Shown: one piece after another, positions 2,453 through 29,389 of the stretch
Layout of the letters: the number at the start of each line of letters is the position of its first letter
Numbering within the stretch: position 1 is the stretch's first letter
Source: a virus
Taxonomy: Duplodnaviria; Caudoviricetes
Reading direction: 5' to 3' (one strand)
Length of the DNA stretch: 64,000 nt
IMG/VR virus record: IMGVR_UViG_3300022305_000561
The notes under the pieces: model-generated
Told to the model about the DNA's origin: nothing
The model's database searches: none
The model's input: the letters and a program-made list of their open reading frames with translations, nothing else
Program-made: the position numbers and the translations under genes

Positions 2453-2479
2453 ATTATTACCCTATTCTGATATTTGTCA

Positions 2480-2938
2480 TTATAGCACAACCCAACGTGA
2501 GCCAGATGGAATTGTAACAGTAGCACCAACACCGATGGTCATTGGTCCAGTACACATTGCATTTTTATTTGATGATATTGTGTAGCTTGATGTAATGGTT
2601 TTGCTATTCTCAAAGAACACAGAATCGCCAACGCCACCAGTTGCACCACCACCTATTGATCCCCAAGCAGATCCGCTATATCCCTCGAACTGATTCAAGG
2701 TGCTATTGTATCGCATATGACCAGTTAATGGAGTTAATGGTCTATCTGAAGTTAATCCGACAGGCAACTTTAGTGCGGTTACTGATGTATTTGATAGATT
2801 GCCAGATACGATCAGATTACCTGAGATCGTACCGCCAGTTGCATCTAGTTTGTCGTTATTTAAATTTGAAAAGTTAGCATCTACTTCAGCAACAGTAAGA
2901 GGAGTTCCTTTCACTTGCCTTAGAACTATTGTTGACAT
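2480..2938 (-). CDS. Short tail-fibre-like protein
   Basis: N-terminal KGTPLTVAEVDANFSNLN, RYNSTLNQFEGY..W motif, C-terminal GP.TI..GATVTIPSGSRWVVL. Confidence 0.7.
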   Translation of the reverse strand: MSTIVLRQVKGTPLTVAEVDANFSNLNNDKLDATGGTISGNLIVSGNLSNTSVTALKLPVGLTSDRPLTPLTGHMRYNSTLNQFEGYSGSAWGSIGGGATGGVGDSVFFENSKTITSSYTISSNKNAMCTGPMTIGVGATVTIPSGSRWVVL

Positions 2939-3144
2939 TATGATTCCTTATTTAGTAATTTGGTGAGTAACATTTTGATATCATCCATATCTTTCTTTAT
3001 AGTATTTATGTCAGATTCCATATCCACTAGTTTGGATGTAGTTTTCTTCTGAGCCATATACTTAGCATACCCTGATTTATCAACATCCACCACCAATCCA
3101 GAATTAGTCTTTGCTAGATTGGGGTGATTTTCGACTTGATTCAT
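2938..3144 (-). CDS. Small coiled-coil protein conserved downstream of DUF4815 genes in T4-like phages
   Basis: V.NHPNL.K...G.V motif and C-terminal coiled coil; translationally coupled. Confidence 0.6.
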   Translation of the reverse strand: MNQVENHPNLAKTNSGLVVDVDKSGYAKYMAQKKTTSKLVDMESDINTIKKDMDDIKMLLTKLLNKES

Positions 3145-6410: not shown

Positions 6411-9400
6411 CTATGCTGTTTTATTTATGGTTGGTAGAGTGATTGTGTCATACCAAACATCGCTACTTGGGGCAAGAGCTAAGTTGCCATAAAATGTAGC
6501 TATAGCAAAAGGATTAACATTTTCGACTCTTGAAGCAAACGGATTATTTATGTAGCTAACTTCTGTATATGGTAAGGTAATTATACCATCATTTGTCACA
6601 TAGTTGTTGGCAGTTCTTTCTGAATCTAACACATTAACTTCTGATAACAAGACAGACTCTTGATAGTGTGGAGGATACAACTCGCCCGATGAACTATTTA
6701 TAAAGCAATTATAATCAACATTAGCCACATCTCCTGTGCCGTGATCCGAAAAGGATTCAACAATAAAACCATTTTTATACATATCAACGCCATCTTGATC
6801 GGCAATTGACAAATTGGTTGTTTGTTGTTCAATTAAGGAGAGCGATACATAATATTCAAGGTTTGATATACGCTTATCGAGTTTAGCAATATCCTTCATT
6901 GTATATCTAGCATTAGATACTGGCGATAATACAACCGTTCTATTAACATCAGCACCATATGGATAGTTAGCTATGATATATAACAACATTGAGGTGTTAG
7001 GTATATTTGGTGGGATAGGTTTCAGCCCAGAAGTACCGTTCAATAATGTAATAGATTTATTAGGGTTAAGGACAACAACATCAACTCTAGGTAAGTAGTA
7101 TGAATAGTCAACATTGATGTTATATCCACTCTTCAAGATTCCAGCAGAGGCAGTATCAAATCCAATTCCGTTATCGTTCCTTACTGGTCTAAAATCTAAT
7201 GTGTCTCTTAATTTTGCTTCTATATTCCCATAAGGGATAGCGTTAGTATACGAATCTACATTAAAATAATCGCCTGCACCATGACTAAAGTATTCAAAAG
7301 AGATTCGGATAGAACCTATAATTTTAATCTCTGGATTAATTCTACTAATGTTACCTAAACCATAAATCAATCCAGTTTGACCAGAATCAAACCTAAATAA
7401 GTTTGTTATATCAACATTGGCTGGATTTGAAGAATTGATGGCACCAAAAGCATAGGCTTGTTTTACTGCTATTATTCTATAACAATCTGCCTTACCTAAT
7501 GATATATTAGACATAGTTGCAGCAGCAGAAGTTGTCATATCTATAGATAATATAGTTTTTGTTTTTGTTCTTGGTGAGGCAGTTTTAACAACAGCAGCAA
7601 ATACTGTATATGATGTTGATGGGGTAAGTCCATTAGCATATATTGAGGTATTGCTATTTACTGTATATGATGATGGAACTTGAACCGACCCTGAAGTATT
7701 ATTGACAAACATAAAGTTTGTGCTGTTGCTAGTTGGCTCAAAAGATTCGAAAGGATTAGTCAATGACATATCAACACGACCAGCAACGCTGCTTGTGATA
7801 TTACCTAAAGCTCTTGTAATATTATAACTTATGTCTATAGTAGCATCATCAGAACCTTTTACTGACCTGATGAACTTATTGGGTAAACCAACAACTGCAC
7901 TATTATTTACATTATTATTAACATTAGCACGAGTTACGACAGCAATACTAGCAGTTGTTGTCAATGAAGCGGAAATTGTAATAGAATTATTGCTTACTAT
8001 AGTCAAAACTTTGAAGTAATTGATACTATTAACTGTGATATAATCATTCACTGCCAATTCCGTTGCAAACAGAGTACCAATTCCTGTTACTGTAGTGCCA
8101 GCAGATGTAACTGATCCTGTGAGGGTAATATTGGCTGGAACTATATCACAAGTAAAATCAAGACCTGATGTGTTATTACAATATATCTGCTTTGCGTTTT
8201 TCTCGAATGTGTATCCTGAAAGCATAGCAATATCATAAACATACAATCTATAATTTGCAGAACCGCTGTCATGTTCTAACCATCTGACTGTAGCAGTACC
8301 AACCTTAGTTCCTACTGCTGTTCCGCCAGATACTGTATAATTATTATACAAATCAACTGATACAAAATCTGTCCCCAACCCTAATGGAGTTGAATACATA
8401 TTTCTAACTAATATGTAAGTGCCATCATATACATTAACAGTGACATTATTTGAACGGGAAAAATCTCTTGCTTTGGTATTTGATAATCTTAGGATACCTG
8501 TCTTTGTATATTCATATCCTTGAACAAAAGCAGAACCTTCTGATAACTCAACAACATATTTTGTGCTATCCCCATCAGGATATAATCCATTATTAATAAA
8601 AACAGATTCTGCATATTCCCACTTTGCAGTTCCATCTATAAATGGACTAGAAAATGTTGTAGTATATGAGGGAGAAGATGATCCAGAAGTTCCTGCTTGA
8701 ACGCACTTGTATCGATATATGATACCTCCAACAAGAGCATATACTACATCATCCATTTGATAAGGTGTGCTTGGCAACCTAATCCCTAAAGAATTCTTTC
8801 TATGTTCTCTCAATGCTGCATTGAAGTTTTTAACTATATAATCTCCAGACTCATCATAAGTTCTTTTAGCTAGAGTTACTTCTAATTCATTATATGAAGG
8901 CATATTCTGTGATATTATAACCTCACCAGAATTTATAGACAATAGTTCAACGAAATTGGCGGGTGGTGTAGTATAACTAACCATCTCAAAAGAAGTTGAT
9001 ATTGAATATCTATCTGCACCAGGAGCAGAATAGTTTGGAGTACCTTGAGCATTGTCTAATAAAGATTCGTCAGTAGTATATTCAATGATATTCTCAGCCC
9101 AAACTATACCAACCTTTGCTGTGGGTTGTAAAGATGATAAAGAACTAGAATTAACATACTTTGCCACAACTATATTAGTATATGCAACATCTACAAAATA
9201 TCCATTGATATAATAGATACCAGAACCTATAGAAGCAATAGATCCTTTACCAGTAGAATTTGTTGTTGATGCTAATACTTCATATATGGTTTCATTACCT
9301 GTGGCAATATTAGATATTGATTCACTATTTAGAAATACAGAACTTGTTGAGCCAGATGAAATATATCTTAGATATAATGTAATTGGGTCTGTGGCGGTGG

Positions 9401-13815: not shown

Positions 13816-15615
13816 TTATCTACTAGGCGAAAAGATATAATCTGACCCTACAACTTTCGTTTCGGCTACTGCTGAAACAGAGAGCGTTAATGGGTCTATC
13901 CTAACAATATGATCCCTGACTGAGACTATATCATTAGATTGTAATTTCATAGTAATCACAAAATCTGATTCTGTTAGGTTTGTAATATTTAAAGCATTGA
14001 GTTGAATCTTACCTATGGAATAATCTACAGTACCTTGAGTTGAATTGGTAATAACCCTATTTCTATTTACATCCAAATAGAATCTTTGTAATTTACCTAA
14101 CCCATCATCATTAATGTATTGAACCTTCGTATCGCCAGCAACATAAAATCCATTAGACATAATAGAGTCTTCTGGCACACCAGCTTCATATATTGGGTTA
14201 TCAACATGAAACAAATAATTAGCAGTAATGTTAAATTTTGGAGCAACCTTTCTGCTTATAGTCAAATAAGTTATATTGCTTGTTATTGAAGTATCTGTTG
14301 CATCTATAAGACTTAACACTTTAGAATATCTGAATATAGAGTCAAACTTTTTCAAATCTGTATCATTATACCCCAATATGTTATTTGTTACATTAGTAAT
14401 CAATTGTGTAGAAGATAATGTAGTCAAGTTTGGATTATAGTATATTGTACTATGTAATTTTATGTTTAGGTAGAATGGGTCTACAAACTCAGGTGTGATC
14501 GTTAAAATCTTTTTTGATTTAAGAATTTCTTCCTTAATCATAGATTTCTCATTTGCTGATAACACTGAACTAGTTTTGGGTGCTATTGATATAAACACTT
14601 TACCGTATACTGGAGGAATATTCTCATCTCCACCCCAAACTTGGATTGAATCAACATTAGTGAAGTTGTTTAATATTATTGATTTATAATCTTCATTAGT
14701 TACTGCTCTATTTGAGGCGCTGTAACTTTTTGGTGCATTATGTTTTATTTCATCAATAGTTTCAGGATCAGCCCCACCAGATGATGCAGATATGGTAGAA
14801 ATAACAGATTGCCCTAGAAGACTACAAGCAAATAATTTGGCTCCATTTGCAGCACCCTTATTAGTAACCACATAAGATAACTGAACCACGTTGCCGTTTG
14901 TCACAGCCTTACCTATTCTGTCATTACCAAACTGAATCTCATACTGACCATTCTCAATCTCTTTGAGGAAATAGACAGCATCTGTTGAATTTATAGTTAA
15001 TACATCTAAGGCTCTTCTAAACTTAGTAACGTTGCTTGAGCTGGCACTATCTCTGACATTAATAGTCAATGTTGATATATCACAATTAGCATTTGATATA
15101 CGATATCTAGCAGAATCAGACACCACATAAGATTGAGTTAAAGGAGTTCCCTCTATCAACTTAACGTTGTTGAATGTGTACTTACCTGCTATGTTTATTG
15201 TTGTATATGATGCATCAGTATAAAACACATAAGAAGTTCCATTGACTGTAGTAGTGAATGGTGTCAACTCACTCAATACTAACGTATCAGGAGTGTTGCT
15301 TACATTAGATATGACTATATTAACAGTTGCTCTTGAAGTTGTTGCAGACCTTGGAAGGTAACCCAACTCAAATGCTCTTGATACAACACTTTCCCTTTTT
15401 GCCGCTGAATCGAGAAACGATTCATTAACAGCCAAGTTGGTATATAGTGCATTGTAATGTGTATTGTATGATAATACATCTAACAGGACAGATAGACCTG
15501 AACCCTCAAAATCATAATCAGAAAGGTCTGATTGACCCCTAAGGAATGTCTTAAAATTGGATTTGATGTTATCAAAATCTAATTCTGTAGTCGTTATGTT
15601 GTTATTCGTAGCCAC
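13816..15615 (-). CDS. gp6: Baseplate wedge protein gp6
   Basis: ELDFDNIK, DYDFEGSGLSVLLDVLSYNTHYN, RAVT..DY, VWGGDENIPPVYGKVFI. Confidence 0.92.
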   Translation of the reverse strand: MATNNNITTTELDFDNIKSNFKTFLRGQSDLSDYDFEGSGLSVLLDVLSYNTHYNALYTNLAVNESFLDSAAKRESVVSRAFELGYLPRSATTSRATVNIVISNVSNTPDTLVLSELTPFTTTVNGTSYVFYTDASYTTINIAGKYTFNNVKLIEGTPLTQSYVVSDSARYRISNANCDISTLTINVRDSASSSNVTKFRRALDVLTINSTDAVYFLKEIENGQYEIQFGNDRIGKAVTNGNVVQLSYVVTNKGAANGAKLFACSLLGQSVISTISASSGGADPETIDEIKHNAPKSYSASNRAVTNEDYKSIILNNFTNVDSIQVWGGDENIPPVYGKVFISIAPKTSSVLSANEKSMIKEEILKSKKILTITPEFVDPFYLNIKLHSTIYYNPNLTTLSSTQLITNVTNNILGYNDTDLKKFDSIFRYSKVLSLIDATDTSITSNITYLTISRKVAPKFNITANYLFHVDNPIYEAGVPEDSIMSNGFYVAGDTKVQYINDDGLGKLQRFYLDVNRNRVITNSTQGTVDYSIGKIQLNALNITNLTESDFVITMKLQSNDIVSVRDHIVRIDPLTLSVSAVAETKVVGSDYIFSPSR

Positions 15616-15626: not shown

Positions 15627-16241
15627 TTAACGTGCTCTTTCCAATACTAAGTCAATTCTTAGTGGTTGTGTAGTATTTATAATCTGAAAATAGATGGTTA
15701 CATTAGCAGAGTATGATTCAGAATTCATATCAACTATTACGTTCAATAATTGAACTCTAGGTTCATATCCAGTAATAACATCGGTGATAGAATGTTGTAA
15801 AAGTATTTGGGTCATTGGAGTTGCAAGTTCAAACATAAGAGCTTTGACTTGAGAACCTATCTGACTATGAAACGGTCTTTCGTAGTTCATAGTCAAGACC
15901 AAATGTTTAATTGATGCTTTTATAGCATTAGCATCAGCCTTGATTGATATATCAGCAGGAGTTGAATACTTGAATGTACTATTGGTAGTTGGTTGAGATA
16001 CACCCGTATATAGTTCTAATGATGTATTTGAAGTTATAGTTTTGACCTTACCAATAAGTTTTGATTCCACATATAGGTTATCGTGTTCTGCCATTGCAGA
16101 TACAAATAAACTATCAGCACCAACTACTGTTGTTGAGTTAAGGGTAGTCGTTATGGTTCCAATTCCTGTGTGTCTATCTTGTGAAGATGGCGCAGGTAGG
16201 AAGTTGAGGTCTATGTCTGTAAATGTTCTTGTATTTTTCAT
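15627..16241 (-). CDS. gp25: Baseplate wedge gp25 (sheath initiator) with an N-terminal insertion
   Basis: FTDIDLNF...AIKASIKHLVLT..YERPF....GS, YEPRV. Confidence 0.88.
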   Translation of the reverse strand: MKNTRTFTDIDLNFLPAPSSQDRHTGIGTITTTLNSTTVVGADSLFVSAMAEHDNLYVESKLIGKVKTITSNTSLELYTGVSQPTTNSTFKYSTPADISIKADANAIKASIKHLVLTMNYERPFHSQIGSQVKALMFELATPMTQILLQHSITDVITGYEPRVQLLNVIVDMNSESYSANVTIYFQIINTTQPLRIDLVLERAR

Positions 16242-16570: not shown

Positions 16571-19411
16571 TTATGAAAATAGTTTCTTCAATCCTGAAGA
16601 GTGTTTACTTTGATCAACATATGTGTATGTTTGACCTACGTTACCTTCTGTAGAATATGATACGTGAACCCATCTGGAAGCACCATTATTCTTATATTCC
16701 ATAATAAGTTTATTGTATGGTAAAACTTTTTCCAACTTAGTGACCAAAGCAAATAGATTATCAACACTGTTATTGTCTATGAATTGAAAATCTATTGCTC
16801 TGCCTTTATTATGATCTGAAGATGCTTTAGATGAGGCAACTGCCCCTTCAGTCCTAAATCCTGAAGTTAGCATCCAAGTGGCTCCATTACCACCACCCTG
16901 ACAAGCGCCCAATTCTTTATAGATGGGTTCTAATATATTCTCACACAATGCAGATAGGTTAGCCACAATCGTTTGTTTTGTGTATAACTTTCTATTACTA
17001 GATCCTGCTGAGGGTAAACTAACATCAGTGATGCTATATTTACCACCCAAGGTCAACATACCTAATGTGAAATGCTCAGACAATTTATAACTTAAGGGGA
17101 ATCCAGATTGATTATTAATTTCATTCAACTTATCTGCAGATATACCTTTACCAGAACCAGCTCCACCAGATACTGCAACTGAATCTTCATCTGTTGGATT
17201 CTTAATAGCATTGTGTTCATATGCGCTTGTTGTATATAAACTATTAGCTGCCTTTTGTCCACTTGGTGAGTTCCAATCATCTTCCTCTTCATATTTAAAC
17301 TCGCCAGAAGCTGACCTTTGAGGTGGTTTCAAGTTTGCGTAAGGTTGGTTATATGCAGATTCAACTGGCGGCACAACAAGTCTGTGTCTACTTGCACTGT
17401 TAGCTGCAGATAATGAAGTTTTAGTTTCGATAGGAGCTCCAGCATATTTGACATCATATACATTTGGAGTTCCACCACCAAACAAGCTTGATAATCCTGA
17501 ACTCAACGGTAATCCGCTCAATATATCATCTATAGCAGTTTTAGGTAAAGTATTTGGATTATATGTTCCTGCTGGGTTCAATGCTGTCTCTACCAGAACC
17601 TGTTCTTTTGCTCTATCTTTAATTTCTTTACCAGCAAAGTCAACAGGTTTCTTAGCAGCCCCTAATAATGGTAATTCTGTTATATCTTTAATATCAATTT
17701 CTGTACCATTCAAGTCTATTTTAGCTGATTTCATTGATATTATATTTGTAGCATTCAATACTGCTGTTCCAACTGATTTTAATTCTAAATTACCAGTCAA
17801 AGTTTGAGCTTTGAATGTTCCAGTTTTTATTTCAGTTGATTCTGCTATATCAAGTTTGAATGTCTTAGCCTTGATTTGGAAGTCAGCAGGAGTTTCCAAC
17901 TTAAAACTACTTGACATCTTCATAAGAGTTTCAGCAGTAGAAGCAGTATCACCACCTTCCATACTCATGGACTTAGAAGTCTTAAGTTTTAAAGCATCAG
18001 TAGATTCAATAGACATAGTACCAATTGATCTTGTGTTTGATGTCTTACCGACTTCAACGTTATAGTTACCTTCTACTAGAACATTGTAATCACCACCAAC
18101 AGCAATATTAAGGTCTTTTGCAACTCCAATATTAGCATCATTATGGAATACAGCATCAACTTGACCTTTCACTTCAAGATTTGCATCACCTTGACATAGG
18201 ATATTCATTGGACCTGAAACTGTCAGGTTGCAAGTTCCATTGATGAATATGTTTCCATTACGTTCAGTAATGTAGAAGCCATCACCAACAATATAGTTGA
18301 TTTGAGAACCATTAGGATCTATTTCAATGAATGTACCTTTCTTATGATATAGATTAACACGTTCACCTTGAGGGCTATCATCAAATTCTAATACGTGACC
18401 TGATTCAGACTCAAATACTTTATTGTATGGATATACTGTATTGTATGCTGATTGAGGTTGATCGTATGTGCCAATAGTATTTGCTATTGGGATATCAGTC
18501 TTTCTAGTAGTATCTTTATATTTTATGTTTGTGCCTTCAATAATACCCCGAGCAAGTCGGTTAGTATCAGGCTCATTCATATAATCCCTGAGGGGATATT
18601 TACCCTCAGGATCAGTAAATCCATTTGTATTGAAGTTGGCTGTTCTATCTTCAGTATATGCCTCTTTCTTATTAGGAGATGACATATCAATTTCTTTTTG
18701 TGTCTTATTGATGGCTGTACTAGTAGCATCTTTAGTGGTTGGTGGATTGGCAGCAACACCCCCCAAGAAATATTCATAATATCTAACTTTATGTCTGTAT
18801 GAATCAGAACCTGCAGGGTCTCCAGGATTAACTGCAGTCAATGCTTTGAATATGAATCCAGGTTCATACTGAAGAGTCTTCCAACGAGGGATTCTCATCT
18901 TTATAAATTCAACTGCAACGTTGGCACACAACTCCATAACAGTATCGTCTGTACCAACCATTACATCTGGATTGCTGGCTAAATCTTTTCCAACCAACTT
19001 ACCTAATGCGACATAATTGTCTTTGTGAGTAAGTTGTATAAATCCTCTACCGTAGTATTGACCAGCAGCAGGAGTAGCTCCATTTCGTGTTCCATAGAAC
19101 CAACCAAAGAATTCCTGCTTTGACATATCCTTGCCACCAGCATTACTTCCATATTTTTCAGCATCAGCCTCAGTCACTCTTGGTTTTGTCAAAAGTGTTG
19201 CTTTCTTGTATCCGTGTTGTTCTTGAACAGGTAACCAAACACTCTCAACTCCAATGATACCTAAAATAGCACATTGAGCATATTTTGAATCTAGTCCTCT
19301 ACTTTTGCAAGCCTTTTTTATAGCAGCAATACCACGCATTGCTCCTTGAGTTGCTTTAGCTTCTGATGGAGGTGTATCTGGAATTGGTATGCTTTCTATT
19401 GGATCAGCCAT
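16571..19411 (-). CDS. gp5: Baseplate spike gp5, C-terminal part: GH19-like muramidase + beta-helix + peptidase M15
   Basis: YYGRGFIQLTHKDNY (GH19); YPYNKVFESESGHVLEFDD..GER...YH..GT (gp5 beta-helix); SSDHNKGRAIDF...WVHVSY (M15). Confidence 0.85.
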   Translation of the reverse strand: MADPIESIPIPDTPPSEAKATQGAMRGIAAIKKACKSRGLDSKYAQCAILGIIGVESVWLPVQEQHGYKKATLLTKPRVTEADAEKYGSNAGGKDMSKQEFFGWFYGTRNGATPAAGQYYGRGFIQLTHKDNYVALGKLVGKDLASNPDVMVGTDDTVMELCANVAVEFIKMRIPRWKTLQYEPGFIFKALTAVNPGDPAGSDSYRHKVRYYEYFLGGVAANPPTTKDATSTAINKTQKEIDMSSPNKKEAYTEDRTANFNTNGFTDPEGKYPLRDYMNEPDTNRLARGIIEGTNIKYKDTTRKTDIPIANTIGTYDQPQSAYNTVYPYNKVFESESGHVLEFDDSPQGERVNLYHKKGTFIEIDPNGSQINYIVGDGFYITERNGNIFINGTCNLTVSGPMNILCQGDANLEVKGQVDAVFHNDANIGVAKDLNIAVGGDYNVLVEGNYNVEVGKTSNTRSIGTMSIESTDALKLKTSKSMSMEGGDTASTAETLMKMSSSFKLETPADFQIKAKTFKLDIAESTEIKTGTFKAQTLTGNLELKSVGTAVLNATNIISMKSAKIDLNGTEIDIKDITELPLLGAAKKPVDFAGKEIKDRAKEQVLVETALNPAGTYNPNTLPKTAIDDILSGLPLSSGLSSLFGGGTPNVYDVKYAGAPIETKTSLSAANSASRHRLVVPPVESAYNQPYANLKPPQRSASGEFKYEEEDDWNSPSGQKAANSLYTTSAYEHNAIKNPTDEDSVAVSGGAGSGKGISADKLNEINNQSGFPLSYKLSEHFTLGMLTLGGKYSITDVSLPSAGSSNRKLYTKQTIVANLSALCENILEPIYKELGACQGGGNGATWMLTSGFRTEGAVASSKASSDHNKGRAIDFQFIDNNSVDNLFALVTKLEKVLPYNKLIMEYKNNGASRWVHVSYSTEGNVGQTYTYVDQSKHSSGLKKLFS

Positions 19412-19419
19412 AATATACC

Positions 19420-20106
19420 TTAAAAGTTTTTATCGAAGTAAGCTAATGCTTCTTCTTTAGTGTTGAATGCCATACTTGTTCCTTTGAATGGTAGATATTG
19501 TGGTTCTTCCCATTGTTCAGGTTTAGATAATGTAGCATTGAATTTCTTGGTGTTCTCATCAAACGATATTGTTGCTATAGTTGTCTCTGATGTATTATCG
19601 TTTACATTGTAGGTGGTATATGTCCCATCAGACAACTGTGTATTGACAGCATTAATATGATATTTACTAGCGGTTGCTTGAACTTCACCAGCACCAGAAT
19701 CACTTGCTATTGAATCGATCAGGTCTGTTATAGAGTCACCTGTTGAACTAACCAATTCACCACTATCATCAGTAGATACAACACCATTAGTTACTTCAGA
19801 AACATATGCAGCAGACCGTGTTTGAGGTATACCACCAATTGTTCCAATCATAACAGGTTGTTGTTGAAACTCATCCATAAAGATTACTATGACCCAAGTT
19901 CCTTGAACCACTCCTGTTGGACTCCAACCTAAGCCATTCATAGAAGCTGAATTGATAGGCAGCATGGGATGAGCCCAAGGTAAATCGAATGTTGGGAGAT
20001 CGATTTTGTTGTCTGTATGAAGACCAACGACCCTAACTTGACATCTGCCTAGTTTCAAAGGATCCATCCGATTTTCAACTACCCCAGTATAAAATGTCTG
20101 ATTCAT
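19420..20106 (-). CDS. gp5: gp5 N-terminal OB-fold protein, encoded as a separate gene
   Basis: GVVENRMDPLKLGRCQVRVVGLHT...LPWA.P...G.WV...F.D...QQP..IGTI. Confidence 0.88.
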   Translation of the reverse strand: MNQTFYTGVVENRMDPLKLGRCQVRVVGLHTDNKIDLPTFDLPWAHPMLPINSASMNGLGWSPTGVVQGTWVIVIFMDEFQQQPVMIGTIGGIPQTRSAAYVSEVTNGVVSTDDSGELVSSTGDSITDLIDSIASDSGAGEVQATASKYHINAVNTQLSDGTYTTYNVNDNTSETTIATISFDENTKKFNATLSKPEQWEEPQYLPFKGTSMAFNTKEEALAYFDKNF

Positions 20107-20113: not shown

Positions 20114-21379
20114 TTATTTGTCTAGGTTAATGTCAAAAGAATCTTTTATGAGTGAGAATGTGCATTCGTGAGATGATATCCCTACGTTATGTCGTATGGA
20201 TGATATCAAGTAAAATCCAGAAAACATATTGTCTCTAGTGTCAGCCTCAGTATCTTTTTTATCAAGAGGTTTATTTTGATAGAGTTTCAACTCAACCTTT
20301 TGACCTACTGTGTAATCTGTTCTACCCAATACTGTTATTTGAATCTTAACACTTTCTGCTAGTTGTAGTAATGATCTTCTACGTTGAAAGTATTTGGCAT
20401 TTGATATATCGTGATTGCCAGTCATAACAGCATTGGCTTTATGCATAGTAGCAATAGCAGAAACTGAACTATGATTTAATGTCTTGGATAATAATGGATA
20501 TTTATTCAGTCTCTTATCCTTATCATAATCATTCAGGATATCAAATGTTCTAACAGCATAATTCTTTGTTGTTATATCGTGAGTTATCAAGGTTGATGAG
20601 TAAGTCCCATTCTGTATGTTGCTAATGTAATCAAACGATACAGGAATATTCAAATTCAGTACTCGACTGAAGTCACGTTCTATGTTTCGTATACTCTTGA
20701 CCGAATCAATATCTCTTGAATAGGAATCATTTATAAATAACCTAACTGAATCTGTGTTATATAATGATTCTAATGATATAAAATTCAACCCATTTCTATT
20801 CTCAAAGAATAAGAAGGTTGGTGACCCATTAGCATTAACAGCGTGTTCTGCAAGATAGTTTAGATTCTTGATAGGTGACCAAAAATTAGATACATATGCT
20901 ATACCATTAGTGGTTGGCTCAATATGGAATCTATTTGATGTAGGGTTGAGGCTGTATTCAGCAAGAACCTTCTCCGCCAGTTTACCTATATTATCATTAT
21001 ATGATCTACTGATTTTGATATTGAGGTCTAACAAAGCCTCTACTGAGATGAAGTGGAGTGTATAACTCACCACTCTATCGCCAGCCATCTCTCTATCTTC
21101 TAATTTATAAATTCTAAAGGTATTCTCAATGAATGTTCCTTTATTGGTAAATCCTGGTGTTGCTAATCTAATATTGAGGACTTCATTACCAACCAAGGGA
21201 AAGTAATTAACCAAATCCAAAGCATCCTTTATTACAACTGACCCAGTAATAAATGGCGAAAAGATATCCTCAAAAATATTGAGAGATAACATCATATGCC
21301 TAACGTCAATGGAAATACCCTTGGATGATATTATTTCCATTTTTTGAACGTCTATCTCACCTGCACTTTTCAATTCCAT
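20114..21379 (-). CDS. Baseplate hub / tail protein (gp27-like position)
   Basis: IFEDIFSPFITG.V.I.D, FLFFEN..G.NF.SLE, FSG.YLIS.IRH. Confidence 0.75.
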   Translation of the reverse strand: MELKSAGEIDVQKMEIISSKGISIDVRHMMLSLNIFEDIFSPFITGSVVIKDALDLVNYFPLVGNEVLNIRLATPGFTNKGTFIENTFRIYKLEDREMAGDRVVSYTLHFISVEALLDLNIKISRSYNDNIGKLAEKVLAEYSLNPTSNRFHIEPTTNGIAYVSNFWSPIKNLNYLAEHAVNANGSPTFLFFENRNGLNFISLESLYNTDSVRLFINDSYSRDIDSVKSIRNIERDFSRVLNLNIPVSFDYISNIQNGTYSSTLITHDITTKNYAVRTFDILNDYDKDKRLNKYPLLSKTLNHSSVSAIATMHKANAVMTGNHDISNAKYFQRRRSLLQLAESVKIQITVLGRTDYTVGQKVELKLYQNKPLDKKDTEADTRDNMFSGFYLISSIRHNVGISSHECTFSLIKDSFDINLDK

Positions 21380-21879
21380 TATATCGTACCTAACTCTCTA
21401 GCAACTTGATTTATGATTTTTGGGCTGATAATCTTGATTGGTCTTTTACTTTCATTAACAGCATACTCATAATCAGAATTTGTTATTGGCGATGAACCAA
21501 CAACATTACTATCAACAATGAAAGTCTTTCCATTCAGGTTTGCTTCATAATGGTGGATGTCGTTTATATGATCTATACCATATTTGTCAAGTATGACTTT
21601 TGCCATTGAAGACTCCATCACAGGAAAGTCTGTTATGTAATCATAACGATCGTTTGCTAATAAGATAGCCCAATGATAGTCTGCCTTACCATATACCCTT
21701 TCTGCTATTGATTCAGGCGTATCGCCATCAACCATAATGTAAGTATCAAATAAGGTAATGTTAGAGAGCACTTCCTTTCTAACCCTAACATTCTTGGTGA
21801 TGTCTGTCATTACCTTATATTCATCTTTACCATTGATGTTATACTTGTATAAAAGTTTACCAAAATCCTGAAAATACAT
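21379..21879 (-). CDS. gp53: Baseplate wedge gp53
   Basis: MYF..F, DGDTPE.IA..VYG..YHW.ILL.N, IHHYE, NESKR.IK. Confidence 0.9.
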   Translation of the reverse strand: MYFQDFGKLLYKYNINGKDEYKVMTDITKNVRVRKEVLSNITLFDTYIMVDGDTPESIAERVYGKADYHWAILLANDRYDYITDFPVMESSMAKVILDKYGIDHINDIHHYEANLNGKTFIVDSNVVGSSPITNSDYEYAVNESKRPIKIISPKIINQVARELGTI

Positions 21880-23033
21880 TAGAATTTATCCTTTTTAATA
21901 TTGTCTTTATCAAGTTTGCCAAGTTCTTTGAATAATAAGGACATAACAATTTGGGTAGGTGTACCATCTGGAAAGGTTGAAAATGTACCTTGAGGTGCAT
22001 AATCTAAAGAAAGATCCATAAGCACGCAAGAAGTATGATGATGTATGTTATCATTAGGTTGATTATTGTTGTAATAAGTTATATCAAATTCTGATGGATA
22101 GATATACAAGAATTGGTCTTCATCTTTGAATTCGGGGTGCATATGGTATTTGAACTGATGAATAATGTTCAAACAATTAGCAGCTTCTTGAGAGTCTTTT
22201 GGTGCAAATGTATAGGTGAATGAGAAGGTTCTAAAATCAACAGATTTGAATACTTGTTCTTTTACTGGATTAACGGCAGTCTTGGATATTTTTGAAATCA
22301 TTCCCGAGGCATCACCTGCACCTTGCATCGCTAAGGCAGCAGCACCAGCAGAGACAGTCCCCTTGGTATTCTCGCCCATGGCTTGAGCACCACGATACGA
22401 AAGACCGATATCCGCCTCTTCATAATTCACAGAATATTTTACTGATAATGCTAGAGGCATATGTAATGCAATTCCAGTTTTAATACGTTTCACGGGTTGA
22501 TTAAAACCACCAGTCTCATTTGCTACAATTCCCGTAGCTATAGCTCTAGTCGCTCCTCCTATAATTGAGGACAACAATGAACTGGTTTCAATACCAATAG
22601 CGCCTAGCAATTTGTTAGCAATAGCGCCTTGTCCAGCACCAATAGCACCTTGAATACCAGCAACTGCCTTAGCACTAATTTTTTGACCTGTTACTTGATT
22701 TACTCCAAGAACAGCATCAGCAACAAAATTATCAGCAGCCCCAAATTTCCCAATCTTTGATTCGGACTGAACGTTGATATTAAACATAACATAGTTGCCA
22801 CCATATTCTTCTTGCATTATGTTGATAGGATAACTAAACGAATCAATTTTGTATTTTGAATATGGAGTTTCTAGTGCTTCTGTTACAAGTACAGCGGCTG
22901 CAACTTGAGGCACAGTACTTAAAACTGCAGCTATAGCACCACCTGCAATACCGCTTATATTCCCTAAATTCTTTGGGTTATATGGTATAATTCTAACAAG
23001 ACTTCTAGGATCTGCCATTAAATCGTTTGCCAT
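21879..23033 (-). CDS. gp48: Baseplate tail-tube cap gp48
   Basis: IALHMP, NP.KEQVFKSVDFRTFSF.Y.F.PK..EA, F.EL. Confidence 0.85.
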   Translation of the reverse strand: MANDLMADPRSLVRIIPYNPKNLGNISGIAGGAIAAVLSTVPQVAAAVLVTEALETPYSKYKIDSFSYPINIMQEEYGGNYVMFNINVQSESKIGKFGAADNFVADAVLGVNQVTGQKISAKAVAGIQGAIGAGQGAIANKLLGAIGIETSSLLSSIIGGATRAIATGIVANETGGFNQPVKRIKTGIALHMPLALSVKYSVNYEEADIGLSYRGAQAMGENTKGTVSAGAAALAMQGAGDASGMISKISKTAVNPVKEQVFKSVDFRTFSFTYTFAPKDSQEAANCLNIIHQFKYHMHPEFKDEDQFLYIYPSEFDITYYNNNQPNDNIHHHTSCVLMDLSLDYAPQGTFSTFPDGTPTQIVMSLLFKELGKLDKDNIKKDKF

Positions 23034-23063: not shown

Positions 23064-23077
23064 TATTTATATAAATA
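23064..23077. promoter_or_regulatory. Back-to-back T4-type late promoters (palindrome TATTTATATAAATA)
   Basis: TATAAATA on both strands between the divergent gp48 and gp4 operons. Confidence 0.8.
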
Positions 23078-23082
23078 ATTTG

Positions 23083-23523
23083 ATGAAAAAACAAAAATAC
23101 TATCAAGGGTCTTGGACTCCAAAACAAATATACAAATATGATGGCGATTATACAAAAATCACATATCGAAGTTCTTGGGAACTCAAGTTTATGAATTGGT
23201 GCGATAATAACTCTACTGTGTTATCTTGGTCATCAGAGGAAACAGTTGTGCCTTATAGGTCACCTGTCGATATGAAACCTCATAGATATTTTGTAGACTT
23301 TAAAATCAAGGTCAATTCCAACAATGGAATAAAGACCTATTTGGTTGAAATCAAACCTGATATGCAAACTCGTCCACCTAAAGTCCCAACAAGAAACTCC
23401 AAGAGATACTTGACTGAATGCTCAACCTTTATGGTCAATCAAGCCAAGTGGGATGCTGCTGATAGGTGGGCAAAGGACAGAGGTTGGGAATTCATAGTCC
23501 TAACAGAAAAGCATTTATTTTGA
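23083..23523 (+). CDS. gp4: Head completion nuclease gp4
   Basis: YQG...P....KY.GD...I.YRSSWE.KFM.WCD, HRYFVDF, EIKP, NQAKW. Confidence 0.92.
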   Translation: MKKQKYYQGSWTPKQIYKYDGDYTKITYRSSWELKFMNWCDNNSTVLSWSSEETVVPYRSPVDMKPHRYFVDFKIKVNSNNGIKTYLVEIKPDMQTRPPKVPTRNSKRYLTECSTFMVNQAKWDAADRWAKDRGWEFIVLTEKHLF

Positions 23524-23531
23524 TATAAATA
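23524..23531 (+). promoter_or_regulatory. T4-type late promoter
   Basis: TATAAATA upstream of gp2. Confidence 0.7.
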
Positions 23532-23556: not shown

Positions 23557-24168
23557 ATGGCAGAACGTGAGAAAAAAGTCGCAACATATTATGATATATT
23601 TGCTCTCAACCAATACAACCTAAAAGACATCACACAAAAGTCGTATTCTTGGTATACCCAACAAGCATTACTTTTAGGTCGCCAAGGGTTTACTGCAAAG
23701 CGTGTGATTGATAATCCTTCAGCTATAAAACAAAGTAAGGTTATTCCTGGAAAATTATATTTATATGGTTATGACCCAAAACATAAAAAGACATTGCCAT
23801 ACTATGATAAGTTCCCAATGGTATTTCCATTCAAAGTAGTTAAAGGTGGGTTCTTAGGGTTGAATATGCATTATATGCCTGTTCCCTTTAGAATAAAACT
23901 CTTAGATAGACTAATGCAGATTGATGGAACAAAGAACACAAAACGAGTAAAGATGCAATTATCTTGGGGTTTGATCTCAGGTGCATCTAGTTTGAAGATA
24001 CTAGAACCTTGTGTTCATATGTATCTTAACGATCATATTCAAACACAGTTTAGAGAAATAGAAAGAGTAGACTGGGCAACAGCAATGATGTTACCTTGTC
24101 AGCAGTTTGTTGGAGCATCTAACATTCAAGTCTGGAGAGACACAATGAAAAAAGCAGGTATGTACTAA
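23557..24168 (+). CDS. gp2: DNA end protector gp2
   Basis: GKLYLY.YDPKHK.TLPYYDKFP, GFLGLNMHY.P..R. Confidence 0.92.
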   Translation: MAEREKKVATYYDIFALNQYNLKDITQKSYSWYTQQALLLGRQGFTAKRVIDNPSAIKQSKVIPGKLYLYGYDPKHKKTLPYYDKFPMVFPFKVVKGGFLGLNMHYMPVPFRIKLLDRLMQIDGTKNTKRVKMQLSWGLISGASSLKILEPCVHMYLNDHIQTQFREIERVDWATAMMLPCQQFVGASNIQVWRDTMKKAGMY

Positions 24169-25004
24169 TGGCAGCAGATGATAGCAAAAAATCAGTTGGG
24201 TTAGATAATTTCATATCCCTAATAAAAAATACTGGATTATCTCAAGTTAGCCATTTTAGTGCTGTGTTATACCCACCACCAATGATGAAACGACTAAAAT
24301 TAGACTTATCCAAGTTTGCTTTGTTATGTGATACTGCCTCAATTCCAGGTATAAGTTTTATGACTAATGACGTTGCGGTATATGGTGAGGCAAGACAAAT
24401 GCCCACCCAGAGATTATTTTCTGATATATCATTAACATTTTATGTTGATTTAAATTTGGTCATCAAGAAATATTTTGATGATTGGACGAATTTGATCATA
24501 GACCCCAAAACAAGATCGGTCAACTATTATCGTGAATATGTGTCTCATATGGATATAATAGTTCACGATAAAAATCATAATGTCAAATACAAAGTAACTC
24601 TTAATGAGTGCTACCCCAAATCAATACGAAATATTGGATTGGATTATAATGACCATAATCCAATGAAACTATCTGTTGAATTCCAGTATAAGGATTATGT
24701 AGTTCATAATCTATCGGGTGAAGGTGAACAGCTAGAATTAAAAGCGTTCCTGAAGGATAGTTTGAATACTGATGTATTAGGTTCAATAAAACGAGAAACA
24801 GCCCGCATAGACAGAGAGCATAGTTCAACCAATGAAACTGGTTCGCCGTTGGTCACGTTGCCTGAGATAGTAATAGAGAATGATGTGCCTAAAACTACGT
24901 TGCCTGAAGTCACACAATCATTAACTAATCCAGATGAGATTATATTACCAACATCAACTAATATCCTTTCAACCACTATAGACCTTCTAAACGCGATATT
25001 ATAA
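24168..25004 (+). CDS. gp54: Baseplate tail-tube initiator gp54-like
   Basis: LCDTASIPG, LTFYVD, YFDDW, L.ECYPK.I..I.L.Y. Confidence 0.8.
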   Translation: MAADDSKKSVGLDNFISLIKNTGLSQVSHFSAVLYPPPMMKRLKLDLSKFALLCDTASIPGISFMTNDVAVYGEARQMPTQRLFSDISLTFYVDLNLVIKKYFDDWTNLIIDPKTRSVNYYREYVSHMDIIVHDKNHNVKYKVTLNECYPKSIRNIGLDYNDHNPMKLSVEFQYKDYVVHNLSGEGEQLELKAFLKDSLNTDVLGSIKRETARIDREHSSTNETGSPLVTLPEIVIENDVPKTTLPEVTQSLTNPDEIILPTSTNILSTTIDLLNAIL

Positions 25005-25005: not shown

Positions 25006-25416
25006 ATGAACATAGATGATAAATTGAATGAGGTATTTAACCTTGAACCTGTTGATGGTGATTTTATATCCAAACGAGGTGTTGTGTTAGTACCAACAGA
25101 TAATGCAGTAGAGAATGATTGTGATTATTCAAGAAACAATTTGTATGGATTACTACAGAGTGGGCAAGATGCCTTAGAATCTGCATTAGAAATAGCCAAA
25201 CAATCTGAGAACCCAAGAGCGTTTGAGGTAGTAGGTAACTTGATAAAACAACTTGCCGACATAAACCATCAATTGTTAGATGTACATATTAAGAAACAGA
25301 GGATGACTACAAAGGAAGTTGATAAAGCAACATCAATTACAAACAATTCAATATTCGTTGGCTCAACAACTGAACTCAATAAATTTATAAACAATATGAA
25401 CAAAGGTGAATCATAA
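25006..25416 (+). CDS. gp16: Terminase small subunit gp16-like
   Basis: DYSRNNLY.L...GQ.AL....A.QSE.PRAFEV...LIK, FVGSTTEL. Confidence 0.82.
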   Translation: MNIDDKLNEVFNLEPVDGDFISKRGVVLVPTDNAVENDCDYSRNNLYGLLQSGQDALESALEIAKQSENPRAFEVVGNLIKQLADINHQLLDVHIKKQRMTTKEVDKATSITNNSIFVGSTTELNKFINNMNKGES

Positions 25417-26129
25417 TGGCATTACCAAAGCAAAGTACCGCAATATACACAACAACTATACCTTCAACTGAACAATCTGTCAAATTTAGACCATTCCTAG
25501 TTAAGGAAGAAAAGGCTCTGTTGATTGCTCAACAATCTGAAGATAAGAATGTAATGGTTGATACTCTAAAGACCATTATCAAAGATTGTATTGTGGATAA
25601 GATCAACGTTGAAACATTGGCAATGTTTGACCTAGAGTATTTGTTGTTACAAATCAGGGCTAAATCAATTGGTGAGATTGCAGAGTTAATCTTTTCTTGT
25701 GATGTATGTGATGACCCAAAGGCAAGAGTTAAGATTGCTTTTGATTTGACTACTATCAATGTCACTAAAGACCCAAACCATACCAAGAAAATAAACCTAT
25801 TTGATGATGTTGGTGTTGTATTAAAGTATCCAACTATTGATGAAGTAAATGCATTGGCTGATGTAGATTTGGATAATGTTGATGCTGTATTTGATTTGAT
25901 CATATCGTCTATTGAATATATTTATGATGGTGATGAAATTTATCATACAAAAGAACAAACAAAATCTGAGGTTGAAGAGTTCGTCAACAACTTAACCCAG
26001 CAACAATTTAAGTTGATAGAATCATTTTTTGAAACTATGCCAAAATTGAGACAAGATGTTAAATACACTTGCCCTGTTTGCGATAGAGTTCATAACAAAT
26101 ACATTGAAGGTATTGAATCTTTTTTCTAA
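25416..26129 (+). CDS. gp26: Baseplate hub assembly protein gp26
   Basis: MALPK, FRPFLVKEEK.LL, FDLEY..L.IRAKSIGE, CxxC pairs; ends EGIESFF*. Confidence 0.9.
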   Translation: MALPKQSTAIYTTTIPSTEQSVKFRPFLVKEEKALLIAQQSEDKNVMVDTLKTIIKDCIVDKINVETLAMFDLEYLLLQIRAKSIGEIAELIFSCDVCDDPKARVKIAFDLTTINVTKDPNHTKKINLFDDVGVVLKYPTIDEVNALADVDLDNVDAVFDLIISSIEYIYDGDEIYHTKEQTKSEVEEFVNNLTQQQFKLIESFFETMPKLRQDVKYTCPVCDRVHNKYIEGIESFF

Positions 26130-26305
26130 TAGCTCTATGTTCAGATTCCTTGGAAAACTACTACAAGATGAATTTCGCCTTGATGCAGTATCACAAGTAT
26201 TCATTATCTGACATAGAGCATATGATCCCATTTGAACGAGAAGTCTACACAAGTTTATTGACCAACTTCCTTCAGGAAGAAAAAGAGAGACAACAAAAAC
26301 ACTAG
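26126..26305 (+). CDS. gp51: gp51-like baseplate hub assembly domain in the -1 frame of gp26 (probably made as a frameshift fusion)
   Basis: Not in the ORF track: LIALCSDSLENYYKMNFALMQYHKYSLSDIEHMIPFEREVYTSLL...*; first ATG at 26168 lies inside the conserved motif. Confidence 0.85.
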   Translation, partial: LIALCSDSLENYYKMNFALMQYHKYSLSDIEHMIPFEREVYTSLLTNFLQEEKERQQKH

Positions 26306-26328: not shown

Positions 26329-28428
26329 ATGTTAGATTTACTTGCTAAACAAAATGCTCACTTAGAGGCAATTGAAAACCTATTGAAGACTGATAGGTTG
26401 ATGCAGTTGGCTCAGACTTATGGTATCCACCAAATTGATGTTGATGAGGATAAGGTTGTAAAATCTTTAGCCAGTATTGATAAAGAAGACGATAAGATAG
26501 TTAAGGCGACTGAGAGTATTGCAATCATATTAAGTCAGTTAAGTGCTCAGAATATTGAATCTAACGATTTATCAATAGAATCTAATGTTGTATCATCAAA
26601 AATCGTTAAGGCAATAGAAACTTCTTCAACATTTGCTCAAATCGCAGCTAAGGCACATCTTGAATCTCTAAAGAAGATGCGGGAAGATATAGCCAAAAAT
26701 AACGAACATAAGGGTATTGCTGAAAAGTCTGGGCAGAAATCCGCAACCACTAATATAGTCGACAAGTTCAGAAATACTGTACAGAATATAGGAGAATGGG
26801 GAAAACGAACTAAAGAATCGTTATCAAACTCAGAAGGCAAAATGTCGGTTGGTAGTGTATTAAAATCACCCTTGAAAAGTATAGGTGCAGCACTATCTCC
26901 AAAATATGCAGAACAATTACAATACATCAAAAATGAAAGAAATCTTAATCCAGATTCTGACAAAACTGATAAAGAGTTGAAATCTGATTACAAAGAAAAC
27001 AATCGCTATCAACAAAGAAATGATAGAAACGAAAAGAACCTAGATCGTAATAGAGGAACCCTAACAAAAGAAGAATATTTGAAAGGTGGTTCTGATAAAG
27101 CTAAATCATATGAAAAAGAACAACTGGATATTGGTAGAGGTCTCAAGAAAACCGATTCAAGATATAGATTAGACGATGAGCCAGAGAAGGATGAAAAGGC
27201 TCAGTACAAAGCGGGGGAAAGAGCACTTGGTTCTAGAAAGGCTGATAAGACCCTTGAGAAAAACTTTGCAACACGAACTACCCTAAACGAAAGGAATGTT
27301 GCTAATGAATCAACGTTAGCAACTGCTGTTGGTAAAACAAACTTAACCCAAAAAGAATTCCTATCAGGTAACTCAAAGGAAGCAAAGGCATATAAGAAAG
27401 AACAAGCTGCTGTTGGTAAAGGATTACAGAAAGTTGATTCAAGGTATACATTAGGTCAAGATGAACCATCAAGAGCAAAACCAATTAAGGCTACTGCTGA
27501 ATCAAATAATGTACTTGGAACAGTATCTGCATTGGGTAGTTCTATAGAACCAATGACTGCTGCTAATTTATCTCAAGAAGATAAACTGGAAAGTATTGAA
27601 GTAACAAAAGATTATCAAGATGCTCAACTAAAGAATAATGAAGAACAAACAGAAATCTTTACCGATCAACTAAAAACACAAAAAGAAATACTTGAAATCC
27701 TCAAAACTCCTGGAACTGCAGCACCTGCCTCGACTGGATCTGGTATTGGGTTACCTGAGACTGGGGGAGTTTTACAAAAGGCAGGTGGTTTTCTTAAAAA
27801 GGCAGGCAATGTTGCATCTAAATTTATGGGAGCAGCTGCAGTACCTTTAGCAGTTGGTGTTGTTGGAGCTGCCGCAGCCAACCTTGCTGCAAATACATTC
27901 TCTGATTCCTTTGGAGAAGGTGGGTTTGATGTTGTAAAGAAACTTCAAGATGATAAAGTGATTGATTATAACGCAACTGTTATGGGATTCAATCCTTCTG
28001 AGGTATTAGATTGGGAAGGAATACAAAAGTTAAAACCTGAAGACCTAAAGAAATTGTTGGATTCAGGAGTTGAATTTAGTCCTGAGGATACTTCTAAACT
28101 ACACAAAATATACACACAAAATCTGATTACAAATGGGAAGGATTCTCCTGCCGCTAAACCTGAACAAGTAACACCAACAGCACAACCTGTTACACCTGAA
28201 CAAGTAACACCAACAGCTGAAGCACCTAAAGCAGCAAATGCTGTATATAATCAATCAGCTGAAACAGTGCAATCTGCAACACCTGCAGTTACTCCAGTGG
28301 TTAATAATATATCATCGCCCACAAATGTAGTTAATAACAGTTCTAGTAAATCGCCTATGAGAATTGATGTTAAGAACCCTGAATCATCAGTTCAGGCTAT
28401 GTTTTCAAGTAGACAGAAATTTTATTAA
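26329..28428 (+). CDS. Tape-measure / hub (gp29-like) protein
   Basis: 699 aa, helical and charged, hydrophobic Ala/Gly segment, C-terminal PVVNNISSPTNVVNN; follows gp26/gp51. Confidence 0.6.
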   Translation: MLDLLAKQNAHLEAIENLLKTDRLMQLAQTYGIHQIDVDEDKVVKSLASIDKEDDKIVKATESIAIILSQLSAQNIESNDLSIESNVVSSKIVKAIETSSTFAQIAAKAHLESLKKMREDIAKNNEHKGIAEKSGQKSATTNIVDKFRNTVQNIGEWGKRTKESLSNSEGKMSVGSVLKSPLKSIGAALSPKYAEQLQYIKNERNLNPDSDKTDKELKSDYKENNRYQQRNDRNEKNLDRNRGTLTKEEYLKGGSDKAKSYEKEQLDIGRGLKKTDSRYRLDDEPEKDEKAQYKAGERALGSRKADKTLEKNFATRTTLNERNVANESTLATAVGKTNLTQKEFLSGNSKEAKAYKKEQAAVGKGLQKVDSRYTLGQDEPSRAKPIKATAESNNVLGTVSALGSSIEPMTAANLSQEDKLESIEVTKDYQDAQLKNNEEQTEIFTDQLKTQKEILEILKTPGTAAPASTGSGIGLPETGGVLQKAGGFLKKAGNVASKFMGAAAVPLAVGVVGAAAANLAANTFSDSFGEGGFDVVKKLQDDKVIDYNATVMGFNPSEVLDWEGIQKLKPEDLKKLLDSGVEFSPEDTSKLHKIYTQNLITNGKDSPAAKPEQVTPTAQPVTPEQVTPTAEAPKAANAVYNQSAETVQSATPAVTPVVNNISSPTNVVNNSSSKSPMRIDVKNPESSVQAMFSSRQKFY

Positions 28429-28448
28429 AAAAGGAGTCCGAAGACTCC
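28427..28448 (-). terminator. Rho-independent terminator with C(UUCG)G loop after gp32; may also act on the convergent + strand transcript
   Basis: Minus strand GGAGTC-TTCG-GACTCC-TTTTTT. Confidence 0.85.
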
Positions 28449-28480
28449 CTGAGTGGTTTCTCCTTTAAGAGATAACTGGT

Positions 28481-29389
28481 TTATTCAGCTTCGGCAATAC
28501 TCTTGAAGTAATCAAGGATATCTTCGTCATCACTAGATACTGCAGCTTTTGGCTGTGGCGCTGGAGTTGACTTAGGTTGAGCAGGTTCCGTGGTTGCTAC
28601 TCTTTCAGATATTGCTGAAGCAGTAGTAACAGGAGCTGCATCTAAGTTCAACACATCAGCCAACTTACGGCTCAATTCTTCAAAAGTCTTAAAGTTCTTT
28701 TTATCAAGGAACTCTCTCAAAGGATATTGTTTGTTTACTAATGCAACTAACTTATCCTCATCACCATTGAATAACTCAGATGGTGAATCAAACTCTGATT
28801 TGTCGTACGATGGCCAACCTTCAACTTGTCTAATACGAAGTCTAAAGTTTGCACCTTCCCACAAACTAAATACATTGACTGGAGTTTCATCTTCAAAAGT
28901 TGGCTTGGCTTTATCCATAATCATGTCAAAGATTTTTTTACCAAACTTGAACAACTTAACTTGACCTTCATTCTCAGGATGTTTTGGGTCACTGATTACA
29001 AGAATGTTACAAGTATAGTTTAAACGTCTTTTTTGTTTACGAGCAGTTTCTTTATCTGCTTCTGAACCCGAGTTCCAAAGTTTGGCATTCAAATCACCTA
29101 ATGGATCTTTCTCGCCAATTGTAGATAATGAATTCTCAATATACCAACGACCTGTTGGACCTTGAAATCCGTGATTGAAAATTCGTACCCAAGGAAGGTC
29201 ATCGCCTTCAACTTGCGGTAGAAATCTAATGACAGCAGAACCATTACCTGCTTTATCTCTGTCTAGTTTCCAAAGTCTATCATCATCAAAACTTTTTGAT
29301 GTAGAACCTGGATTAGTGATCTTTTCAAACTCAGAAGTAATTTTTGAAAAGTCATTGTTTCTTAATTTTCTTAACGATTGTATGTCCAT
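28481..29389 (-). CDS. gp32: Single-stranded DNA-binding protein gp32
   Basis: DDRLWKL..DKAGNG.AVIRFLP, HGFQGPTG.WYIENS, FGKKIFD, acidic tail DILDYFKSIAE. Confidence 0.96.
   Translation of the reverse strand: MDIQSLRKLRNNDFSKITSEFEKITNPGSTSKSFDDDRLWKLDRDKAGNGSAVIRFLPQVEGDDLPWVRIFNHGFQGPTGRWYIENSLSTIGEKDPLGDLNAKLWNSGSEADKETARKQKRRLNYTCNILVISDPKHPENEGQVKLFKFGKKIFDMIMDKAKPTFEDETPVNVFSLWEGANFRLRIRQVEGWPSYDKSEFDSPSELFNGDEDKLVALVNKQYPLREFLDKKNFKTFEELSRKLADVLNLDAAPVTTASAISERVATTEPAQPKSTPAPQPKAAVSSDDEDILDYFKSIAEAE

Follow-up and report, generated by a model that had tools for sequence, protein, structure and literature searches.

A predicted −1 ribosomal frameshift that would make gp26- and gp51-type proteins from one gene in relatives of phage T4

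IMG/VR virus record IMGVR_UViG_3300022305_000561 (Duplodnaviria; Caudoviricetes) was analyzed as one stretch of 64,000 nucleotides, referred to here as the window. It contains a gene for a counterpart of T4 gp26, and comparison of sequences makes it very probable that this gene and its relatives use a conserved programmed −1 ribosomal frameshift, of the lambda G/GT type, to produce both a gp26-type and a gp51-type protein. We infer the ribosomal nature of the shift, its efficiency and the binding partners of the products. The gp26-like open reading frame (ORF) occupies positions 25416–26129 on the + strand, encodes 237 amino acids and ends GAA TCT TTT TTC TAA. A slippery heptamer, T_TTT_TTC, lies at 26120–26126 in X_XXY_YYZ phase relative to this frame (the 0 frame), and the TAA stop follows it immediately at 26127–26129. 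The −1 frame is uninterrupted from 26126 to a TAG at 26303–26305; it reads LIALCSDSLENYYKMNFALMQYHKYSLSDIEHMIPFER... and specifies 59 amino acids followed by the stop. Conceptual fusion of the two parts gives a protein of 296 amino acids, in which the tryptic peptide YIEGIESFFLIALCSDSLENYYK is predicted to span the junction. The candidate start codons of the −1 frame are a TTG at 26150 and the first ATG, at 26168, which sits within a conserved YYKxNF motif. An earlier reading of the window from its letters alone (the sequence-only reading) had placed the end of the ORF, the heptamer, the stop, the open −1 frame and both candidate starts at these positions, correctly in every case.

Both parts of the putative fusion have counterparts in T4. 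The 237-residue protein matches PF12322 (T4_baseplate) over positions 2–218 of 219 (2.4e-60; 204.4 bits against a cut-off of 24.5) and phrog_150 ('baseplate hub') over positions 5–232 of 282. The −1 extension (26126–26305) matches phrog_634 ('baseplate hub assembly catalyst') at 4e-25 and also positions 237–277 of the 282 in phrog_150, where it continues the match of the 0 frame. T4 gp26 (208 amino acids) belongs to the same Pfam family and consists of PF12322 only. It ends near the point where the 0-frame product of the window ends: in a multiple alignment its terminus (...EFFELL) lies three residues beyond the FF that closes the window's protein. T4 gp51 (249 amino acids) consists of PF12322 at residues 1–201 and a C-terminal stretch matching phrog_634, which is the architecture that the sequence-only reading had described as a gp26-type domain joined to a C-terminal motif. 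This C-terminal module is homologous to, and colinear with, the extension in the window. BLASTP of the fusion yields one alignment across the junction with gp51 of Aeromonas phage Aes508 (residues 23–289, E = 5e-12) and likewise one with T4 gp51 (residues 23–293, E = 5e-7); the latter comparison had been put forward as a check on the roughly 296-residue fusion, which proved colinear across the junction.

Phages of the two types differ in the number of genes that they devote to this family. Whole-genome searches found exactly one PF12322 gene in each of the phages V05, phiN3, pf16, Melnitz and S-CAM1, and no second such gene was found within the 64-kb window. A gp26 gene and a contiguous gp51 gene are both present in T4, Aes508, Acinetobacter phage Henu6, Proteus phage Pm5461 and Klebsiella phage Fraggle, and contiguous gp51 genes were found in about 1,380 records from enterobacterial, Acinetobacter and Aeromonas phages. 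The earlier suggestion of one locus here against two paralogues in T4 is therefore borne out by one gene in five frameshift-type genomes and two in five T4-type genomes. In T4 the two forms are separate, divergently transcribed paralogues that lack a run of T, whereas in the window both are contained in one gene. The window holds no uninterrupted gp51 ORF; the module lies in the −1 frame beyond the stop, and the gp51 architecture would therefore be reached there solely through a frameshift. T4 gp26 (7806–8429, − strand, in the T4 locus used here) also weakly matches (9e-4) phrog_1140, the family of gp28 ('baseplate hub distal subunit'), a faint sign that gp28 might be another remote member of the gp26/gp51 chaperone family.

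Conservation of the signal was assessed in 87 loci: the window, 80 IMG/VR contigs retrieved with the gp26 protein as query (37–61% protein identity), and the named phages Synechococcus S-CAM1 and S-CAM3, Sinorhizobium phiN3, Vibrio V05, Pseudomonas pf16 and Methylophilales Melnitz. An in-frame T_TTT_TTY/A heptamer is present in all 87, as TTTTTTC in 61, TTTTTTT in 25 and TTTTTTA in one. The gp51-type module follows in the −1 phase in every locus, as an extension of 57–68 residues, and the 0-frame stop is found 0–2 codons past the heptamer in 85 loci and eight codons past it in the other two. The sequence-only reading had asked whether heptamer and −1 phase would recur in relatives; their identity in 87 of 87 related loci places them far beyond chance. 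The module itself is more widely distributed, since tblastn with the 59-residue extension matched 565 phage records, among them cyanophages and phages of Vibrio, Aeromonas, Sinorhizobium, Pelagibacter, Methylophilales and Pseudomonas.

The constraint on the heptamer acts on nucleotides that the protein sequence leaves free. The residue preceding the run of T varies (Ser, Asp, Asn or Ala), and its codon ends in T in all 87 loci (AGT 46, TCT 20, GAT 11, AAT 8, GCT 2); for the same residues in the gene bodies, the share of T-ending codons is just 0.34–0.78. The first Phe codon of the run is likewise TTT in 87 of 87 loci, compared with a TTT share of 0.73 in the gene bodies. Taken together, the fixed synonymous sites have a joint probability of ∼1e-30 (log10 of about −30) if the loci are treated as independent, a value that overstates the independence of the 87 related loci and is illustrative only. 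T4 provides a natural control. Its gp26 retains the FF but spells it TTC TTT, and the run of T is absent from all five gp51 junctions examined. Since T4 gp26 keeps the two Phe residues without the run, the run is not accounted for by the protein sequence.

Elements of the kind that stimulate frameshifting were sought on either side of the heptamer. GGAGG or GAGGG occurs 9–10 nucleotides upstream in 54 of the 87 loci, and a Shine-Dalgarno-like element at this distance promotes −1 frameshifting in E. coli dnaX. Where Glu is encoded at this site, GAG is used in 54 of 71 cases, compared with a GAG share of 27% in the gene bodies (binomial P ∼1e-17, a figure inflated by the relatedness of the loci). 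Downstream, the 50 nucleotides past the heptamer were the most structured of eight segments tested in 85 loci, with a mean minimum free energy of −9.0 kcal/mol and a mean z of −1.47; z for the other segments ranged from −0.12 to −0.98. We do not claim a conserved RNA structure, because the hairpins seen by eye occupy different registers. In the window, the clearest feature additional to the heptamer is the stop codon that abuts it.

The same two products could in principle arise during transcription, if RNA polymerase were to add one U on the run of T. We regard this as unlikely. One extra T would yield exactly the fused frame, runs of seven or eight T are present in 25 of the 87 loci, and bacterial polymerases slip at runs of this length (PMC5009743). 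In the other 62 loci, the window among them, a C or A interrupts the run after six T, a short stretch for a polymerase to slip on productively. Furthermore, the run is always phased as X_XXY_YYZ, a phase that polymerase slippage would not require, and the Shine-Dalgarno-like element is enriched, through synonymous codon choice, at the spacing expected for a ribosomal −1 shift.

A second alternative is that the −1 ORF is a small gene 'gp51' of ∼50–60 amino acids, translated from its own start or by termination-reinitiation. This is how GenBank annotation treats it: the ten frameshift-type records that we inspected list either gp26 alone or two separate coding sequences (CDS), and a joined CDS in none. 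Start codons are also available. Of the 87 loci, 25 have ATG at extension residue 4 and 23 have TTG at residue 9, and an ATG overlaps the gp26 stop in some relatives, such as the Vibrio phages V05 and D490. This overlap weighs against the frameshift scheme, since a separately started small protein is possible in relatives of that kind. No start position is conserved before extension residue 19–20, however, and H6 (75/87), L9 (80/87), Y12 (70/87), N16 (84/87) and F17 (87/87) all precede the first common Met, at residue 20. The sequence-only reading had named independent initiation at TTG 26150 or ATG 26168 as a possible challenge to the frameshift; neither codon is conserved, residues upstream of both are, and the window's first ATG falls inside the YYKxNF motif. 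Nucleotide entropy by codon position just 3′ of the heptamer (1.03/0.82/1.42) has −1-frame periodicity and resembles that of the coding region upstream. Such comparisons show that the −1 frame is constrained as coding sequence from the first codon past the heptamer. In T4-type phages the module is always the C terminus of a gp26-like domain, and a separate gene would leave the invariant run of T, its phase and the fixed synonymous sites without a reason. We therefore consider a free-standing small gene very unlikely as a general explanation. The remaining possibility is a miscalled homopolymer, with seven T read as six, or a recent mutation that split a gp51-like gene. Homopolymers are prone to sequencing errors, and insertion of a single T would join the frames, yet this explanation has next to no chance of being correct. 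The same split and phase recur in all 87 loci, which are independent assemblies and isolates drawn from several phage families (with the stop nearby in 85), the five frameshift-type genomes searched have a single gp26 gene with no second copy, and both frames are under coding constraint; sequencing error was rejected on these grounds.

The predicted structure of the 0-frame product connects it with known tail assembly chaperones. An AlphaFold2 model of the 237-residue protein, built from 51 aligned relatives (mean predicted local distance difference test score, pLDDT, of 85), was compared exhaustively with 48,161 representative PDB chains. The best match was 3fgx (rbstp2171; Z = 7.9, 85 residues aligned), followed by 2ob9, 'bacteriophage HK97 tail assembly chaperone' (Z = 7.4, 84 aligned), Bacillus subtilis YqbN (3klu; Z = 7.0, 85 aligned) and 5ir0, a protein from a Vibrio phage-inducible island (Z = 5.2, 83 aligned). 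The first unrelated chain came fifth (Z = 4.2, 68 aligned), so that the top of the list forms one functional class clearly apart from the remainder; 3klu and 3fgx we take to be chaperone-type prophage tail proteins. Matches of the top three chains cover residues 1–95 of the model, with a root-mean-square deviation of 3.9–4.1 and sequence identity of 8–16%. Foldseek against the PDB returned nothing at E ≤ 0.001, although 2ob9 stood in third place and had the highest probability of the list, 0.72, and a gp26 profile search against PDB sequences gave no relevant match. In the model, the N-terminal domain that the two products would share resembles the tail assembly chaperone fold. The same overall fold is widespread among predicted structures of myovirus proteins, including those of Bacillus, Campylobacter and Ralstonia phages.

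The rest of the protein is less easily placed. Fold comparison of the second domain (approximately residues 95–237) gave no informative match. This domain is absent from HK97 2ob9, YqbN 3klu and 3fgx, which have ∼100 residues, whereas the window's protein possesses it. A match of residues 91–237 to the zinc finger 2nb9 was weak (Z = 2.8). Two CxxC motifs are encoded in the gp26-like gene of the window, at 25698–25709 (residues 95–98) and 26070–26081 (residues 219–222), and T4 gp26 has two likewise. The pairing suggests a four-cysteine metal site that would link distant parts of the second domain; CxxC is absent from 58 of 86 relatives. Modeling of the 59-residue extension gave a small helical domain (pLDDT 80), and a fold search with this model gave a flat and uninformative list (best Z = 4.9).

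Combining these results, we propose the following scheme. Most ribosomes would stop at the TAA at 26127 and release the 237-residue protein, the counterpart of T4 gp26. A minority would slip back by one base on U_UUU_UUC, either because both tRNA-Phe molecules re-pair (from UUU-UUC to UUU-UUU) or because the tRNA in the P site slips by itself with the stop codon in the A site. Shifted ribosomes would resume at the CUA at 26126 and add the 59-residue helical module, to give the 296-residue counterpart of T4 gp51. By analogy with lambda gpG and gpGT, the part shared by both forms would bind the tape measure protein, while a tube-like or hub protein would be recruited by the extension during initiation of the hub and tail. 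The two forms would be made at a set ratio, both would be required for assembly, and neither would remain in the virion. The likeness to G/GT, which the sequence-only reading had drawn from a frameshift directly in front of the tape-measure-like gene, is backed by the N-terminal fold match to chaperones and by the large ORF conserved downstream.

Several observations weigh against this scheme. The fused product is, in all members, a prediction from sequence alone. U_UUU_UUC is not among the most efficient slip sites in bacteria. The window has only GAAGG (within GAA GGT, 26106–26110, 9 nucleotides 5′ of the heptamer), which is weaker than the GGAGG of its relatives, and its RNA downstream of the heptamer is no more stable than shuffled sequence (minimum free energy −7.5 kcal/mol, z = +0.65). 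With both upstream and downstream stimulators weak, the efficiency of frameshifting in the window may be low. No consensus structure past the heptamer was found by RNAalifold with 84 sequences or with 50. The Z scores of 7–8 that connect the model with chaperones are moderate and limited to the first ∼90 residues. Finally, the protein encoded downstream (699 amino acids; 26329–28428, + strand), which is probably a tape measure protein and the counterpart of gp29, has no significant BLASTP match to T4 gp29. Its identity is deduced from its position, its size and a score of 0.90 to the PF25671 (T4_Tape_measure) cluster in a language-model search for look-alikes, which we treat as a lead only.

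The description of the next gene as tape-measure-like is probable from its size and place, with a large + strand ORF located 3′ of the extension in 70 of the 71 loci with enough sequence. The 699-residue protein matches nothing in Pfam or PHROG, nor did tblastn against 50,697 phage records return a match. It has a Gly/Ala-rich hydrophobic stretch near residues 470–525, and its positional counterparts in relatives have extremely divergent N termini. Synechococcus phage Sf-FR1 (491–2382 of its locus) carries the gp26/gp51 pair followed by gp32 on the opposite strand, without a large gene between them. Because gp32 comes directly next in that phage, adjacency to a tape-measure-like gene is not universal.

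The order in which the one-gene and two-gene states arose can be considered from their arrangement and distribution. Fraggle has gp54, gp51, gp26 and gp25 one after another on a single strand (610–3188 of its locus), and in T4 genes 26 and 51 are divergent; the arrangement in Fraggle is a possible intermediate between a frameshifted gene and the divergent pair of T4. In a maximum-likelihood tree of PF12322, the frameshift-type genes and the gp51 genes are each set apart by a well-supported branch (98/92 and 100/99). The gp26 genes are not gathered in a single group: that of Fraggle joins the gp51 branch, a placement for which long-branch attraction was flagged as a possible cause. With long branches and no root, the tree does not give the order of events. 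We nevertheless infer that the one-gene, frameshifted state is the likelier ancestor, because it is found in Kyanoviridae, Emdodecavirus and Chakrabartyvirus and also in Schizotequatrovirus, a member of the Straboviridae. On balance, we favor a history in which gp26 and gp51 represent, in the T4 superfamily, the tail assembly chaperone that is universal among such phages, the frameshifted one-gene form is ancestral, and the separate genes 26 and 51 of T4 reflect a later duplication that replaced recoding.

The locus lies beside a module of baseplate and hub genes. On the − strand, these comprise gp6 (13816–15615), gp25 (15627–16241), gp5, which is split in two (16571–20106), a gp27-like gene (20114–21379), gp53 (21379–21879) and gp48 (21879–23033). 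The + strand then carries a gene for a protein like the head completion protein gp4 (23080–23523), gp2 (23557–24168), a gene for a gp54-like protein of 278 amino acids with a tail-tube fold (24168–25004), a gene for a gp16-like small terminase (25006–25416; phrog_445, 6e-35; PF11053, 1.5e-9), the gp26-like gene with its extension, and the tape-measure-like gene; gp32 follows on the − strand (28481–29389). The gp4-like protein matches the N-terminal domain of TnsA-like endonucleases (PF08722, 9e-21). The gp54-like protein matches PF23849 (Phage_TTP_2, 5e-8) and phrog_45 ('tail tube', 2e-41), and has a weak colinear match to T4 gp54 (E = 0.011). Of the 76 loci with sufficient upstream sequence, 62 have a tube-like gene ahead of gp26, and in 53 loci outside the window's clade the two genes are directly adjacent. 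The small terminase gene, which overlaps the start of gp26 by one base, is interposed solely in the window and ten close relatives.

The T4-type late promoter motif occurs on the + strand at 23070 and again, as TATAAATA, at 23524–23531; this is the last + strand copy before the locus, and the next is at 29528. The −1 ORF has no late promoter motif in front of it on that strand between 23524 and 29528. With no such promoter on the + strand in this interval, gp2, the tape-measure-like gene and those between them look like a single late unit. A G+C-rich hairpin with a run of T is located at 28431–28450, between the convergent tape-measure-like gene and gp32. From its sequence, it is likely to be the terminator of gp32 and is perhaps bidirectional.

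The −1 frameshift in the tail assembly chaperone genes of long-tailed phages was reportedly described as conserved by Xu, Hendrix and Duda in 2004. It ranks among the most conserved recoding events in viruses and is said to hold in long-tailed phages 'except T4', the cited exception (Atkins et al., 2016, PMC5009743). In T4, gp51 has been described as an essential hub protein whose function is unknown, which assembly requires but which the finished particle does not contain (Leiman et al., 2010, PMC3004832). We found no report of a gp26–gp51 frameshift in full-text literature or database records, subscription papers being beyond reach. If our interpretation is correct, T4-like phages would obey the same rule as other long-tailed phages, and the sole stated exception to G/GT would disappear. 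T4 genes 26 and 51 would then be a natural example of gene duplication replacing a frameshift. The 'catalytic' gp51 would also gain a mechanism, as a GT-like form that couples the tape measure protein gp29 to hub or tube proteins, and public records in which a small 'gp51' ORF stands by itself would have to be given a joined CDS.

Comparison with lambda G/GT reveals both differences and likenesses. The window's protein is about twice the size of lambda gpG and has an additional C-terminal domain with two CxxC motifs. Its family, PF12322, is filed as 'baseplate hub', not as tail assembly chaperone. The tube-fold gene upstream resembles gp54 and is not that of the major tube protein, and in the window a small terminase gene separates it from gp26. 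In each system, one gene would specify a short protein and a C-terminally extended form, with the −1 shift taking place on an X_XXY_YYZ heptamer close to where the ORF ends. That gene is preceded by a tube-fold gene and followed by a large gene, which in the window probably encodes a tape measure protein. As modeled, the window's protein has an N-terminal domain that resembles the solved chaperones of the lambda class.

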